Source of the DNA: Escherichia coli
Lineage (GTDB): Bacteria > Pseudomonadota > Gammaproteobacteria > Enterobacterales > Enterobacteriaceae
Assembly: GCF_030013205.1 (NCBI RefSeq)
Contig: NZ_CP122648.1
DNA: 64,000 nucleotides
Direction: 5' to 3' (one strand)
In this document: positions 19,054 to 47,599 of the stretch, one piece after another
Layout: each line of letters begins with the position of its first letter
Position numbering within the stretch: position 1 is the stretch's first letter
Made by a program: the position numbers and the translations under genes
Notes under the pieces: generated by a model
What the model saw: only the letters and a program-made list of their open reading frames with translations
Told to the model about the DNA's origin: nothing
Database searches by the model: none

Positions 19054-19305
19054 ATGTACGAATTAACTCTATCGCCAGCAGAGATTCAAGAGATCACGAA
19101 ATACGAGCGATACACAAAACAGCAACACCAGTTAAGGCTGCACGGTATCCCATTTGTAATCGGTCCTAAAAACGAACCAATAGTTCTTCGCAGGGATATT
19201 CCACACGGACTGACTACGATGCCAAAAGCACCTGAACTGGTTTCCGCTGAACCCGATTTTGAGGCGCTGAACAATGGGAAGACCAAGAAAAAACAAAAAA
19301 GATAA
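19054..19305 (+). CDS. Putative excisionase
   Basis: 83-aa ORF immediately upstream of and overlapping int; basic C-terminus. Confidence 0.45.
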   Translation: MYELTLSPAEIQEITKYERYTKQQHQLRLHGIPFVIGPKNEPIVLRRDIPHGLTTMPKAPELVSAEPDFEALNNGKTKKKQKR

Positions 19306-20293
19306 TGCACTACCACCGCGTGTTAGATCGAATGGTTACAGTTACGTATGGAAACCCGAAGGAAGCACAAGAACTATAGGGCTCGGAAGAGTGCGGGAAA
19401 CCAGCGTAGCTAAAGTCTGGCAAAATTATGAGCTGGAAAAAGCAAAACTCCACAACATAATGACAGTAGCTAAATTATGGCACATGTTTATGGACTCCCC
19501 TGCATTTACAGAACTGGCCCCCCGAACCCAAAAAGATTATCGGCAACATCAAAGGGCATTGTTGGCAGTATTCGGAAAAGTGCTTGCTGATAATGTAAAA
19601 ATTGAACAGGTAAGAATTTTCATGGATAAGCGAGGACTTGAGAGCAAGACCCAAGCAAACCATGAACTGGCAAGTCTGAGCCGTGTATACGGATGGGGAT
19701 ATGAGCGTGGGTATGTGAAAAATAATCCATGCAAAGGAGTCAGAAAATTCACACTTAAAGCCCGTACTGTTTACATCACCGATGAACAGTATGCTGCAAT
19801 ATATGCGGAAGCAATTCCACAGTTACGTATTGCAATGGAGATATCCTATCTTTGTGCGGCAAGGCTCGGTGATGTACTCGAGCTGAAATGGCAGGATATT
19901 ATGGAGAAAGGGATTTACATTGAGCAAAACAAGACCGGCACTAAACAAATCAAGGAATGGTCTCCGCGATTACGTACGGCGATCCAGTTAGCCCGAAATG
20001 TATCTTCCGGCACATGCGAGTATGTGATCAACACAACCAAAGGCGGGAAGGTAATAGCCAAGACGCTGAACAACTGGTGGAATCAGGCTAAACGTGCAGC
20101 CGAGCAAAAAGCCGGCGTTCCGTTTGGGTGCAACTTCCATGACATAAAAGCCAAAGGGATTTCACATTACGAAGGCAGCAGTCGCGACAAACAAATTTTC
20201 AGTGGACACAAAACAGAAAATCAGGTGTTGATTTACGATCGTAAAACCAAAATAACACCAACACTGGATTTGCCGCTTGTGGTCAGTAAGTAG
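19274..20293 (+). CDS. int: Tyrosine integrase (lambda Int family)
   Basis: 339 aa; N-terminal arm-binding region like lambda Int; conserved C-terminal Tyr region; 3' end 140 bp from the right att repeat. Confidence 0.9.
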   Translation: MGRPRKNKKDNALPPRVRSNGYSYVWKPEGSTRTIGLGRVRETSVAKVWQNYELEKAKLHNIMTVAKLWHMFMDSPAFTELAPRTQKDYRQHQRALLAVFGKVLADNVKIEQVRIFMDKRGLESKTQANHELASLSRVYGWGYERGYVKNNPCKGVRKFTLKARTVYITDEQYAAIYAEAIPQLRIAMEISYLCAARLGDVLELKWQDIMEKGIYIEQNKTGTKQIKEWSPRLRTAIQLARNVSSGTCEYVINTTKGGKVIAKTLNNWWNQAKRAAEQKAGVPFGCNFHDIKAKGISHYEGSSRDKQIFSGHKTENQVLIYDRKTKITPTLDLPLVVSK

Positions 20294-31199: not shown

Positions 31200-31709
31200 A
31201 TGTACACTTCAGGCTATGCACATCGTTCTTCGTCGTTCTCATCCGCAGCAAGTAAAATTGCGCGTGTCTCTACGGAAAACACTACAGCCGGGCTTATCAG
31301 TGAAGTTGTCTATCGCGAAGATCAGCCCATGATGACGCAACTTCTACTGTTGCCATTGTTACAGCAACTCGGTCAGCAATCGCGCTGGCAACTCTGGTTA
31401 ACACCGCAACAAAAACTGAGTCGGGAATGGGTTCAGGCATCTGGGCTACCCTTAACGAAAGTAATGCAGATTAACCAGCTCTCCCCTTGCCACACCGTGG
31501 AGTCAATGGTTCGCGCTTTACGCACGGGCAATTACAGTGTGGTGATCGGTTGGTTGGCAGATGATTTGACTGAAGAAGAGCATGCTGAACTTGTTGATGC
31601 GGCAAATGAAGGTAACGCTATGGGGTTTATTATGCGTCCGGTAAGTGCATCCTCTCACGCCACGAGACAACTTTCCGGGCTAAAAATTCACTCTAATTTG
31701 TATCATTAA
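31200..31709 (+). CDS. sulA: SOS cell division inhibitor SulA
   Basis: 169 aa from ATG at 31200. Confidence 0.95.
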
Positions 31710-32065
31710 GTAAATTTAGGATTAATCCTGGAACTTTTTTTGTCGCCCAACCAATGCTTTCAGTCGTGACTAATTTTCCTTGCGGAGGCTTGTCTGAAGC
31801 GGTTTCCGCGATTTTTTTCTGTAAATTGTCGCTGACAAAAAAGATTAAACGTACCTTATACAAGACTTTTTTTTCATATGCCTGACGGAGTTCACACTTG
31901 TAAGTTTTCAACTACGTTGTAGACTTTACATCGCCAGGGGTGCTCGGCATAAGCCGAAGATATCGGTAGAGTTAATATTGAGCAGATCCCCCGGTGAAGG
32001 ATTTAACCGTGTTATCTCGTTGGAGATATTCATGGCGTATTTTGGATGATAACGAGGCGCAAAAA

Positions 32066-33118
32066 ATGAAAAAGACAGCTATCGCGATTGCAGTGGCACT
32101 GGCTGGTTTCGCTACCGTAGCGCAGGCCGCTCCGAAAGATAACACCTGGTACACTGGTGCTAAACTGGGCTGGTCCCAGTACCATGACACTGGTTTTATT
32201 CCTAACAATGGTCCGACCCACGAAAACCAACTGGGTGCAGGTGCTTTTGGTGGTTACCAGGTTAACCCGTATGTTGGCTTTGAAATGGGTTACGACTGGT
32301 TAGGTCGTATGCCGTACAAAGGCGACAACATCAACGGCGCATACAAAGCTCAGGGCGTTCAGCTGACCGCTAAACTGGGTTACCCAATCACTGACGATCT
32401 GGACATCTACACTCGTCTGGGTGGTATGGTATGGCGTGCAGACACCAAGGCTAACGTACCTGGTGGCGCATCTTTTAAAGACCACGACACCGGCGTTTCT
32501 CCGGTTTTCGCTGGCGGTGTTGAGTACGCGATCACTCCTGAAATCGCTACCCGTCTGGAATACCAGTGGACCAACAACATCGGTGACGCACACACCATCG
32601 GTACTCGTCCGGACAACGGCATGCTGAGCTTGGGTGTTTCCTACCGTTTCGGTCAGGGCGAAGCAGCTCCAGTAGTTGCTCCGGCTCCAGCTCCGGCACC
32701 GGAAGTACAGACCAAGCACTTCACTCTGAAGTCTGACGTTCTGTTCACCTTCAACAAAGCAACCCTGAAACCGGAAGGTCAGGCTGCTCTGGATCAGCTG
32801 TACAGCCAGCTGAGCAACCTGGATCCGAAAGACGGTTCCGTAGTTGTTCTGGGTTACACTGACCGCATCGGTTCTGACGCTTACAACCAGGGTCTGTCCG
32901 AGCGCCGTGCTCAGTCTGTTGTTGATTACCTGATCTCCAAAGGTATCCCGGCAGACAAGATCTCCGCACGTGGTATGGGCGAATCCAACCCGGTTACTGG
33001 CAACACCTGTGACAACGTGAAACAGCGTGCTGCACTGATCGACTGCCTGGCTCCGGATCGTCGCGTAGAGATCGAAGTTAAAGGCATCAAAGACGTTGTA
33101 ACTCAGCCGCAGGCTTAA
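32066..33118 (+). CDS. ompA: Outer membrane protein A (variant allele, 350 aa)
   Basis: [21 protein letters not shown] signal peptide; beta-barrel plus C-terminal OmpA domain; surface-loop substitutions relative to K-12 as recalled. Confidence 0.95.
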
Positions 33119-33193: not shown

Positions 33194-33646
33194 TTATTCC
33201 TTACCCAGCAATGCCTGCAGATCCTGCTTCAAAGAAGACATTTTATTCGCGTATTTCTCTTTGTTTTCCGCATCTTCAATCAGCTGAACAATTGTTTCAG
33301 AAAGCGTTTTACCGCGACGCTGCGCAAGACCAGCCAGACGTTGCCAGACAATAAATTCCAGATCGATCGATTTTTTGCGCGTATGCTGGTGTTCCGCATT
33401 AAAATGGCGCTTCCGTCTGGCCCGAATGGTTTGCTTCATGCGATTGACCAGTTCCGGATTCATATGCTTGTCAATCCAGCCATTTACCAGCACGGGTTCA
33501 TTTTCCAGCGAGAGCAACACATCGACGGCTTCCTGGGCGGCACTGGCTTCTATGTAACGGGTGATTAACTCCCCTTCGCGGTGCTTCTTCACCAGATACT
33601 TCCATTTCCAACCGCTTTCAAGATTTTCAAGTTGTTGATATTTCAT
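33194..33646 (-). CDS. matP: Macrodomain Ter protein MatP
   Basis: 150 aa. Confidence 0.95.
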
Positions 33647-33831: not shown

Positions 33832-35592
33832 TTGACCATTACGAAACTTGCATGGCGTGACCTGGTTCCTGATACCGATAGCTATCAGGAAATATTTGCT
33901 CAGCCACATTTGATTGACGAAAACGATCCTTTATTCAGTGATACTCAACCGCGACTGCAATTTGCGCTGGAGCAGTTGCTGCATACGCGAGCATCCTCCT
34001 CTTTTATGCTGGCGAAGGCCCCGGAAGAGTCTGAGTATCTGAATCTTATTGCCGATGCCGCGCGTGCGCTACAAAGCGATGCAGGCCAACTGGTGGGCGG
34101 TCACTATGAGGTTTCCGGGCACACCATCCGCTTACGTAACGCAGTGAGTGCAGATGATAATTTTGCGACTTTAACGCAAGTTGTCGCTGCCGACTGGGTA
34201 GAAGCGGAACAACTCTTTGGCTGCCTGCGCCAGTTTAATGGCGACATTACCCTGCAGCCAGGTCTGGTGCATCAGGCAAATGGCGGTATTCTCATCATCT
34301 CTTTGCGTACACTGCTGGCGCAACCTCTGCTGTGGATGCGGCTGAAAAATATCGTTAACCGCGAGCGTTTTGACTGGGTTGCGTTTGATGAGTCGCGCCC
34401 TCTCCCCGTCACTGTGCCTTCGATGCCATTGAAGCTGAAAGTCATTCTGGTAGGCGAACGCGAATCATTGGCTGATTTCCAGGAGATGGAACCAGAGCTT
34501 TCAGAGCAGGCTATTTATAGCGAATTTGAAGATACTCTGCAGATTGTCGATGCGGAGTCAGTAAGCCAGTGGTGTCGCTGGGTGACATTGACCGCCAGAC
34601 ATAATCACTTACCTGCACCAGGAGCGGATGCCTGGCCGGTACTTATCCGCGAAGCAGCCCGCTACACCGGTGAACAAGAAACACTTCCGCTTAGCCCGCA
34701 GTGGATCCTCCGCCAGTGTAAAGAGGTCGCCTCCCTGTGCGATGGCGACACCTTCTCCGGCGAGCAGCTAAACTTAATGCTGCAGCAGCGTGAATGGCGT
34801 GAAGGTTTCCTCGCTGAACGCATGCAGGATGAGATCCTTCAGGAGCAAATCCTGATTGAAACCGAAGGCGAATGCATCGGGCAAATTAACGCCCTTTCGG
34901 TCATTGAATTTCCGGGTCATCCACGCGCTTTTGGCGAACCTTCTCGCATTAGCTGCGTTGTGCATATTGGCGATGGTGAATTCACCGACATCGAACGCAA
35001 AGCGGAGCTTGGCGGCAATATCCATGCGAAAGGGATGATGATCATGCAGGCGTTCCTGATGTCGGAACTACAGCTTGAGCAACAGATCCCCTTCTCAGCA
35101 TCGCTGACATTTGAGCAGTCATACAGTGAAGTGGATGGCGATAGTGCCTCGATGGCTGAACTCTGCGCCCTGATAAGCGCCCTCGCCGATGTGCCGGTGA
35201 ATCAGAGTATCGCTATCACAGGTTCAGTCGATCAGTTCGGTCGTGCCCAGCCGGTCGGTGGTTTAAATGAGAAAATCGAAGGCTTCTTTGCTATTTGCCA
35301 GCAACGTGAGTTAACCGGGAAACAAGGTGTCATTATCCCCACTGCTAACATTCGCCATTTAAGTCTTCACAGTGAACTGGTGAAAGCGGTAGAAGAAGGC
35401 AAATTCACCATCTGGGCAGTAGACGATGTGACTGACGCACTGCCGTTATTATTAAATCTGGTGTGGGATGGCGAAGGCCAAACGACGCTGATGCAAACCA
35501 TCCAGGAACGTATCGCGCAAGCATCGCAACAGGAAGGACGTCACCGTTTTCCATGGCCATTACGTTGGCTGAACTGGTTTATTCCGAACTGA
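33832..35592 (+). CDS. ycbZ: Lon protease homolog YcbZ (LonH)
   Basis: 586 aa, TTG start. Confidence 0.9.
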
Positions 35593-46352: not shown

Positions 46353-47363
46353 TTAGATATGGGTAACGATTTCTTTAATCAGCGGCGGACCTTTAAAAAT
46401 AAAACCAGAATAAATTTGCACCAGTGAGGCCCCCGCAGCAATCTTTTCACGCGCAGCGATAACCGAGTCGATGCCGCCAACACCGATGATCGGTAAGCGA
46501 CCATTTAATTCCTGTGATAAACGGCGAATAATTTCGGTGCTTTTTAACTGAAGCGGACGACCACTTAAGCCACCGGTTTGATCACAATTTTTCATTCCCT
46601 GAACCAGAGAACGATCGAGTGTGGTATTGGTTGCAATAACGCCATCAATATTATGGCGAACTAAACTATCGGCAACCTGGATCAATTCTTCTTCAGAAAG
46701 ATCCGGCGCGATCTTCACTGCGATCGGCACATATTTATGGTGCATCGCTTGCAAATCATTTTGCTTATTTTTAATCGCGGTTAAGAGATCATCCAGCGCT
46801 TCGCCATATTGCAGAGTACGTAATCCCGGTGTATTCGGCGATGAAATATTGATGGCGATATATCCCGCATAAGCATAGATTTTTTCCATACAAATCAGAT
46901 AGTCATCTTTACCCTGCTCCACCGGCGTATCTTTATTTTTGCCGATGTTAATACCCAGGACGCCATCATAATGGGCTTTTTTTACGTTCTCTACGAGGTT
47001 ATCAACGCCAAGATTATTAAAGCCCATACGGTTGATCAAACCTTCGGCATCTACCAGACGAAAGAGACGCGGCTTGTCATTACCTGGCTGTGGACGTGGC
47101 GTGACGGTACCGATCTCGATCGATCCAAATCCCATCGCGCCTAACGCGTCAATGCACTCCCCGTCTTTATCAAGACCGGCTGCCAGACCAAGCGGATTTT
47201 TAAACGTCAGGCCCATGCAGTTAACAGGTTTCGCAGGCACTTTCTGCCGCACCAGTGCTTCAAACGGCGTTCCTGTAATACGGCGTAATTGCTGAAAAGT
47301 AAACTCATGAGCGCGCTCTGGATCGAGCTGGAAAAGGGCTTTACGAACGAAGGGGTAGTACAT
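46353..47363 (-). CDS. pyrD: Dihydroorotate dehydrogenase (quinone)
   Basis: 336 aa. Confidence 0.95.
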
Positions 47364-47599
47364 GAACTCTCCTGGATTCCCGGTGTGCAAACCGGGGGCG
47401 TATTATGTGCGAGTTCGGACCAAAAGGGAATTGACCTGTGGCAATAAATAGCAAACGTTTTCTTATTGCGCTTTTTTTATGCTTTTTTTGGCTTTTCTTC
47501 CTCAGATAAATCATTTCGACTCGCGGGCCACCTCTGTCAGACTGACCGAATTGTTATCAATGTTAACAAAACAAGAACAATTGGTTATAAGGAGAGAGT

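Follow-up and report, generated by a model that had tools for sequence, protein, structure and literature searches.

An intact Escherichia coli ompA gene with the loop pattern of the common OmpA-long isoform

A sequence-only reading of the window (the whole 64-kb stretch of Escherichia coli DNA analysed here) had pointed to an ompA gene whose product seemed to differ from K-12 OmpA in its surface loops. This raised the question of whether the gene carries a new variant or one that is already known, and what the altered loops would mean for the agents that recognise OmpA. The gene was found to be intact and of functional type, and it very probably encodes the common natural isoform OmpA-long, pattern (III, β), of the ompA2 class. 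The allele, which represents one of the two main OmpA forms in E. coli, is an ordinary natural variant that is already known.

The ompA open reading frame opens ATGAAAAAGACAGCT, with the Shine-Dalgarno sequence GAGG just 5' of it, and its nucleotide sequence was 100% identical to that of ompA as annotated in E. coli K_EC180 (WP_000750418.1). The gene order sulA-ompA-matP-ycbZ, taken from annotation and from the open reading frames of the window, was common to the window, K-12 strain RP437 and K_EC180. The predicted product would have the architecture usual for enterobacterial OmpA, in which a signal peptide precedes an eight-stranded barrel bearing four surface loops, followed by a proline-rich hinge and a periplasmic peptidoglycan-binding domain. 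The features of the locus were as follows.

31200-31709, plus strand: sulA, neighbour of ompA
31933-32065, plus strand: 5' untranslated leader of ompA, including the Shine-Dalgarno GAGG; same as K-12
32066-33118, plus strand: ompA coding sequence, ATG start, 350 amino acids plus stop; very probably the OmpA-long isoform, Liao pattern (III, β)
32066-32128, plus strand: signal peptide of 21 amino acids; same as K-12
32132-32662, plus strand: N-terminal eight-stranded β-barrel domain, from PF01389 and identity to 9FZD
32666-32704, plus strand: proline-rich hinge of 13 amino acids; same as K-12
32741-33028, plus strand: C-terminal periplasmic OmpA-like (peptidoglycan-associated) domain, from PF00691
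33132-33163, plus strand: intrinsic terminator downstream of ompA, a hairpin with a 12-bp stem (6 GC pairs) followed by a T-run
33194-33646, minus strand: matP, neighbour of ompA
33832-35592, plus strand: ycbZ, neighbour of ompA

The OmpA_membrane profile PF01389 matched residues 23-199 over positions 1-180 of its 180 (E = 1.2e-79, 266.7 bits, cutoff 21), and PF00691 matched residues 226-321 (E = 8.7e-24, 84.2 bits, cutoff 27.2). No frameshift, stop or loss of a Pfam domain was seen when the open reading frame and the Pfam matches of the window ompA were checked. A pseudogene or a sequencing artefact was rejected because the open reading frame was intact, both Pfam domains were full and 100% identical annotated genes were present in 17 genomes. 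A 374-amino-acid open reading frame starting from GTG 31994 was found to be an in-frame upstream extension of the ompA frame. This start was ruled out, as the ATG at 32066 agrees with the annotated start, with that of K-12 and with the Shine-Dalgarno sequence.

Upstream of ompA, the window and K-12 differed at four intergenic positions, located at -316, -252, -250 and -215 from the ATG, and the 214 nucleotides 5' of the ATG were identical to the K-12 sequence. Because the nearest upstream difference lies at -215, the leader, which we take to be 133 nucleotides long as in K-12, is also that of K-12. No nucleotide difference from K-12 was present in the first 43 ompA codons, and the AQA/APKD context of the predicted Sec cleavage site was present; the signal peptide of OmpA has a length of 21 amino acids (PMC9560509). 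A simple scan of the plus strand returned no sigma-70 promoter, a result obtained with a crude consensus that does not imply absence of a promoter. Since all functional parts of OmpA and a K-12-identical leader are present, the expression and structural roles of the window OmpA should be unchanged compared to K-12.

The K-12 reference used for the protein comparison was the OmpA of strain RP437 (WP_000750416.1, positions 3001-4041 of the fetched locus). The alignment placed the differences in four regions.

32201-32203, plus strand: loop 1 variant codon CCT, N46P in the precursor, mature residue 25; Salmonella also has CCT
32324-32332, plus strand: loop 2 variant DNI, with S87D, V88N and E89I at mature residues 66-68; SVE in K-12
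32450-32482, plus strand: loop 3 variant of 11 residues compared to SNVYGKN (7 residues) in K-12; 12 nucleotides longer
32747-32749, plus strand: threonine codon ACC at mature residue 203 in the C-terminal domain, N224T in K-12 precursor numbering

In loop 1, FIPNNG was found in place of the K-12 FINNNG, and in loop 2 the SVE of the K-12 KGSVENGAYKA was replaced by DNI, whose codons GAC AAC ATC are the same in Salmonella ompA. In loop 3, which reads TKSNVYGKNHD in K-12, the changes were S129A, Y132P, N135D and the addition of the four residues GASF, whose codons were placed by the aligner at 32465-32476. All three loop differences had been named beforehand by comparison with K-12 loop sequences; the alignment confirmed them and showed that the K-12 sequences used there were accurate. 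The fourth region, N203T in the periplasmic domain, was absent from that earlier account. Outside the changes in loops 1-3 and N203T, the window OmpA was identical to the K-12 protein. The amino acid changes in the barrel were therefore confined to loops 1-3, and loop 4 was the same as in K-12.

OmpA was typed by its outer-loop pattern in 78 isolates by Liao et al. in 2017 (PMC5413513). Pattern III, defined by proline in loop 1, DNI in loop 2, the long loop 3 and histidine in loop 4, made up 14.1% of these isolates, and pattern II, which differs from pattern III by asparagine in loop 4, and pattern I, that of K-12, made up 20.5% and 33.3%, respectively (PMC5413513). The C-terminal patterns are set by residues 175, 203 and 251, with A, T and G in pattern β (PMC5413513). 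The window OmpA carried P25, DNI at residues 66-68, an 11-residue loop 3 and histidine in loop 4 (GDAHTIG), as in pattern III, and A175, T203 and G251 in mature K-12 numbering (A200, T228 and G276 in the window precursor), as in pattern β. The combination (III, β) was present in isolates 6, 117 and 146 of the same study, as obtained from the intersection of its strain lists (PMC5413513). The histidine/asparagine site of loop 4 is given there as residue 149 (PMC5413513, Table 3A) and was counted as mature residue 151 by alignment (H176 in the window). The other positions of that scheme (25, 66-68, 108-114, 161, 175, 203 and 251) agreed with the alignment count, so the 149 reflects inconsistent numbering in the literature and no sequence difference.

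Descriptions of the long-loop set date from 2004-2006, and its classification from 2017 (PMC5413513). The class was designated ompA2 by Power et al. in 2006 and was PCR-positive in 43% of 524 isolates, as relayed in PMC5413513 and PMC9560509; according to Liao et al., ompA2 spans patterns II and III (PMC5413513). The sequence of the PDB entry 9FZD represents the most frequent OmpA-long (PMC12259851). When the window barrel was compared with chain A of 9FZD, the two were identical at 174 of 174 residues (precursor residues 22-195), with all four loops included.

The frequency of the long loop 3 in complete E. coli genomes was determined with an 81-nucleotide query centred on loop 3, and at least 80% coverage was counted as a match. 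The long loop 3 DNA was found in 2124 of 5426 genomes (39%), in agreement with the published long-loop frequency of 41-43% (PMC5413513), and K-12-type genomes matched the query over the 33-nucleotide flank only. The exact 350-amino-acid protein corresponds to the RefSeq record "MULTISPECIES: porin OmpA [Enterobacteriaceae]" and occurs on at least 1000 contigs. The whole gene was present at 99% nucleotide identity or more in 370 complete E. coli genomes, and at 100% identity in 17 of the 5426, all of them from pig or wild boar (K_EC180, O139:H1 strains and several ETEC). Given the number of contigs with the exact protein compared to the 17 porcine genomes with the exact DNA, the protein appears to be widespread and the synonymous haplotype to mark a porcine lineage, for which it is a possible marker.

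For alleles expressed in MG1655, a correlation of residue 203 (asparagine or threonine) with biofilm formation and hydrophobicity was reported (Liao 2022), and Thr203 sits in the proposed dimerisation region. In F-plasmid transfer by TraNγ, OmpA is the mating-pair-stabilisation receptor; the G154D change in loop 4 abolishes this function and Klebsiella OmpA fails in it. An effect of (III, β) relevant to the pig-associated lineage, whether by resistance to porcine OmpA-dependent phages, by biofilm formation or hydrophobicity through residue 203, or by F-type (TraNγ-OmpA) recipient ability, is conceivable but quite unlikely.

The ompA genes of the window and K-12 differed at 47 nucleotide positions, made up of 35 substitutions and 12 gap positions. 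Within K-12 codons 44-185 there were 44 of the 47 differing positions and 32 of the 35 substitutions (binomial P = 5.5e-10 for the substitutions, as the segment makes up 41% of the gene), and the last 161 codons contained 3 differences. By the Nei-Gojobori method, dS was 0.228 in codons 44-185, whereas the rest of ompA gave 0.017 and the genes sulA, sxy, ycbZ and matP gave 0.017-0.065, so that dS in the variable segment was 3.5- to 13-fold above that of the flanking genes and the remaining ompA. At barrel positions outside the loops, whose boundaries are approximate, dN was 0 and dS was 0.09. Within the loops, codons differed at two or three positions, with K-12 AAC, GTT and GAA corresponding to CCT, AAC and ATC in the window, respectively. 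These multi-site codon changes, together with many synonymous differences, argue for an old haplotype and not for recent mutation, and the 3.5- to 13-fold higher dS argues that the haplotypes are far older than the clonal frame around them. As read from the nucleotide comparison, the pattern of differences is characteristic of two old haplotypes that recombination has set off from a clonal frame of young age. Positive selection could not be demonstrated in this single pairwise Nei-Gojobori comparison with approximate loop boundaries, where loop dN/dS was approximately 0.22 and not above 1.

The sequence-only reading had also proposed that the changed loops belong to the receptor area for phages and colicins, and that susceptibility may change. 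Published work on this allele class supports both proposals. Phages Ox2 and K3 need the OmpA loops, and their resistance mutations lie at residues 25, 70, 110 and 154 (PMC12032242); almost all ompA mutations that confer resistance to phages or colicins are located in loops 2 and 3 (PMC9560509). In the window OmpA, residue 25 itself was altered, and the DNI and loop 3 changes flank residues 70 and 110. By analogy, a change in susceptibility would be in line with the observation of Power et al. 2006, as relayed in PMC9560509, that ompA2 isolates were less sensitive to phage lysis, and with the restriction of some Gp38 phages to certain variants. According to PMC12032242, eight natural ECOR variants of OmpA were cloned into MG1655 ΔompA; phages with a type-1 Gp38 infected all of them, and phages with a type-2 Gp38 (Straboviridae) infected only variants with loop 2a plus loop 3a or 3b, the permissive variants carrying E89 in loop 2. 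Because the loop 2 residue E89 is named for the permissive variants in that study, loop 2a would be the SVE form. Since the SVE form with E89 is missing from the window allele, we infer that the DNI/long allele would be non-permissive for phages with a type-2 Gp38. Of two nanobodies, Nb39 is specific for OmpA-long and Nb01 for OmpA-short; both touch loop 3 extensively, and Nb39 contacts all four loops (PMC12259851).

Since all amino acid differences in the barrel lie in loops 1-3, only its outward-facing epitope would be altered, and this epitope would be the contact site of phage receptor-binding proteins (such as the Gp38 of T-even-like phages), of antibodies or nanobodies, and of some colicins. 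A cell with OmpA-long would be recognised by a different subset of phages, colicins and antibodies than a K-12-type cell, because the altered epitope is what these binders contact.

The strong association of the alleles with phylogroup (PMC9560509; PMC6995065) allows another reading, in which selection does not act on the isoform polymorphism, which merely follows phylogroup, and the loops are without ecological consequence. The low loop dN/dS agrees with this, as does the report that (I, α) and (II, α) could not be told apart by surface charge, by hydrophobicity, in biofilm formation or in killing by elastase, even though all four loops differ (Liao 2022). Neutrality is nevertheless considered unlikely, as it sits poorly with the 3.5- to 13-fold excess of dS in the segment and with the restriction of barrel replacements to exposed loops while dN elsewhere in the barrel is 0. 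In addition, pattern III is found in phylogroups A, B2 and others (PMC9560509), and isogenic swaps altered phage infection and nanobody binding (PMC12032242; PMC12259851). Because the alleles correlate with phylogroup, clonal structure accounts for part of the isoform distribution. Phage or immune pressure may keep both isoforms at intermediate frequency, which would be consistent with the 39/61 split of the isoforms, with the restriction of replacements to the loops and with the raised dS.

To establish the polarity of the changes, two Salmonella ompA loci were compared, both with sulA-ompA-matP synteny. Of the Salmonella OmpA proteins that fall into the same 90% cluster, 3 of 4 had proline in loop 1 and 4 of 4 had DNI in loop 2, and Salmonella loop 3 was long, ending in S-x-K-D/N-H-D. 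At the 32 differing sites in codons 44-185, Salmonella had the window base at 23, the K-12 base at 6-7 and neither at 2-3. The codons common to Salmonella and the window were CCT in loop 1, GAC-AAC-ATC in loop 2, and CCT and GAC in loop 3 (P132 and D135), and synonymous sites were also shared at codons 91, 111, 120, 127 and 128. The dS of the segment to Salmonella was 0.32-0.39 for the window and 0.43-0.50 for K-12, and in the C-terminal part the window and K-12 were equidistant from Salmonella.

Since Salmonella has the window state at 23 of the 32 differing sites, the long/P/DNI state is probably ancestral-like and the K-12 short allele is probably derived. The polymorphism would then be old, with the long/P/DNI state common to Salmonella. 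The description of loop 3 as bearing a 4-amino-acid insertion holds with K-12 as the reference, but not as a statement of polarity, because the long state appears to be ancestral-like. The polarity and the anatomy of the divergence are the additions made here to a known allele; if the K-12 reference carries a derived short form, insertion calls based on that reference can be inverted.

A hint of mosaic structure was observed at 32195-32470. At the synonymous sites of codons 44-57, the window was derived at 4 of 6, and in codons 58-131 K-12 was derived at 7-8 of 8, with the K-12-derived stretch reaching about codon 135. This hints that loop 1 and loops 2-3 lie in recombination tracts of their own.

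The codons shared with Salmonella in loops 1 and 2 and at P132 and D135, and the confinement of the divergence to approximately 430 bp between near-identical flanks, would also be expected if the long-loop segment had recently been imported from Salmonella or another genus by recombination. Such an import is very improbable, since the window segment is still separated from Salmonella by the dS given above, keeps residues specific to E. coli (for example DLDIYTR and GGVEYA compared to DLDVYTR and GGIEYA in Salmonella) and belongs to a form present at 39% across diverse hosts; with the K-12 segment still farther from Salmonella, any import more likely made the short allele. To the reading that the allele is a novel or rare strain-specific variant that arose recently through point mutations and an insertion under pressure from phages, we give virtually no credence: its exact nucleotide sequence was limited to 17 complete genomes, all porcine, but the exact protein and the long loop 3 are common, the loop set has long been known and classified and its barrel crystallised as 9FZD, two or three changes per loop codon amid many synonymous differences are those of an old haplotype, and Salmonella has the same codons.

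The assignment to OmpA-long would help to predict the OmpA-dependent phages (with a type 1 or a type 2 Gp38) to which the strain could be susceptible and the diagnostic nanobody that applies (Nb39, not Nb01), and it bears on the match to OmpA-loop vaccines built on K-12 or K1 sequences.

Elsewhere in the window, the comparison with K_EC180 (swine faeces, Korea; NZ_CP062203.1) gave 99.96-99.99% identity over aligned segments, with positions 777-64000 covered. An IS1 of approximately 762 bp, which splits a hypothetical prophage gene in K_EC180 (6138-6899 of the fetched locus), was missing from the window (6900-6914), which thus comes from a very close relative of K_EC180, or from another assembly of that lineage. 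A degraded lambdoid prophage at approximately 1-20300 adjoins yccA. In the annotation of K_EC180, its genes for tail fibre, tail assembly and host specificity (J) are truncated; it also has a DNA methyltransferase, a holin, RusA, antiterminator Q, replication protein P, ydfC and dicB, a ParD/ParE toxin-antitoxin pair (approximately 10141-10706), and an exonuclease and a tyrosine integrase (approximately 19275-20293), both of which are frameshifted. No tRNA genes were found within the 64-kb window, and the prophage attachment site is therefore not a tRNA within it. Rfam matches were obtained for the IS009 RNA (555-753, minus strand) and for the PyrD leader (47358-47431, minus strand, 97.9 bits), an ordinary cis-regulatory element upstream of pyrD. 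The neighbouring ompF (58130-59218, plus strand), another phage and colicin receptor gene, was near K-12, with 98.9% nucleotide identity and one amino acid change (T269I in the precursor), and divergence of the kind seen in ompA was not found in it.

Among known systems, the K-12 OmpA (Liao (I, α), OmpA-short; PDB 1BXW, 1QJP and 9FZC) had approximately 98% aligned identity to the window OmpA (338 of 346 residues). The two share the gene, locus, leader, signal peptide, β-strands, hinge and C-terminal domain, and have lengths of 346 and 350 amino acids, respectively. They differ in the nanobody that binds them (Nb01 and Nb39, respectively) and, by analogy with the published variants, would differ in the subset of Gp38 phages. 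The structural reference for OmpA-long is 9FZD chain A (Communications Biology 2025; clinical isolate CS#11 in complex with Nb39), a construct without the signal peptide and the C-terminal domain, which places residue 203 outside the comparison.

The ompA2 of Power et al., from bird isolate B194 (pattern II), has the same loop 1 proline, loop 2 DNI and loop 3 as the window, and both alleles would score positive in the PCR assay of those authors. In contrast, pattern II has the loop 4 GDANTIG and L161, whereas the window has GDAHTIG and M161, which places it in pattern III. The allele described in 2004, as summarised in Liao 2017 (PMC5413513), has the outer loops of pattern III like the window, and the loop 3 DNA of CFT073 was 98.8% identical to the window over 81 nucleotides. 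The C-terminal pattern of the 2004 allele may differ, since B2 strains are mostly (III, γ) or (III, δ) and the window is (III, β) (PMC9560509). The OmpA of Salmonella enterica, with approximately 94% protein identity and dS of 0.23-0.39 to the window, has a long loop 3 with a PG(G)..S.KDHD motif, but differs in the details of this loop (SNAPGYSTKD, SNTPGGASYASYKD) and in many C-terminal residues.
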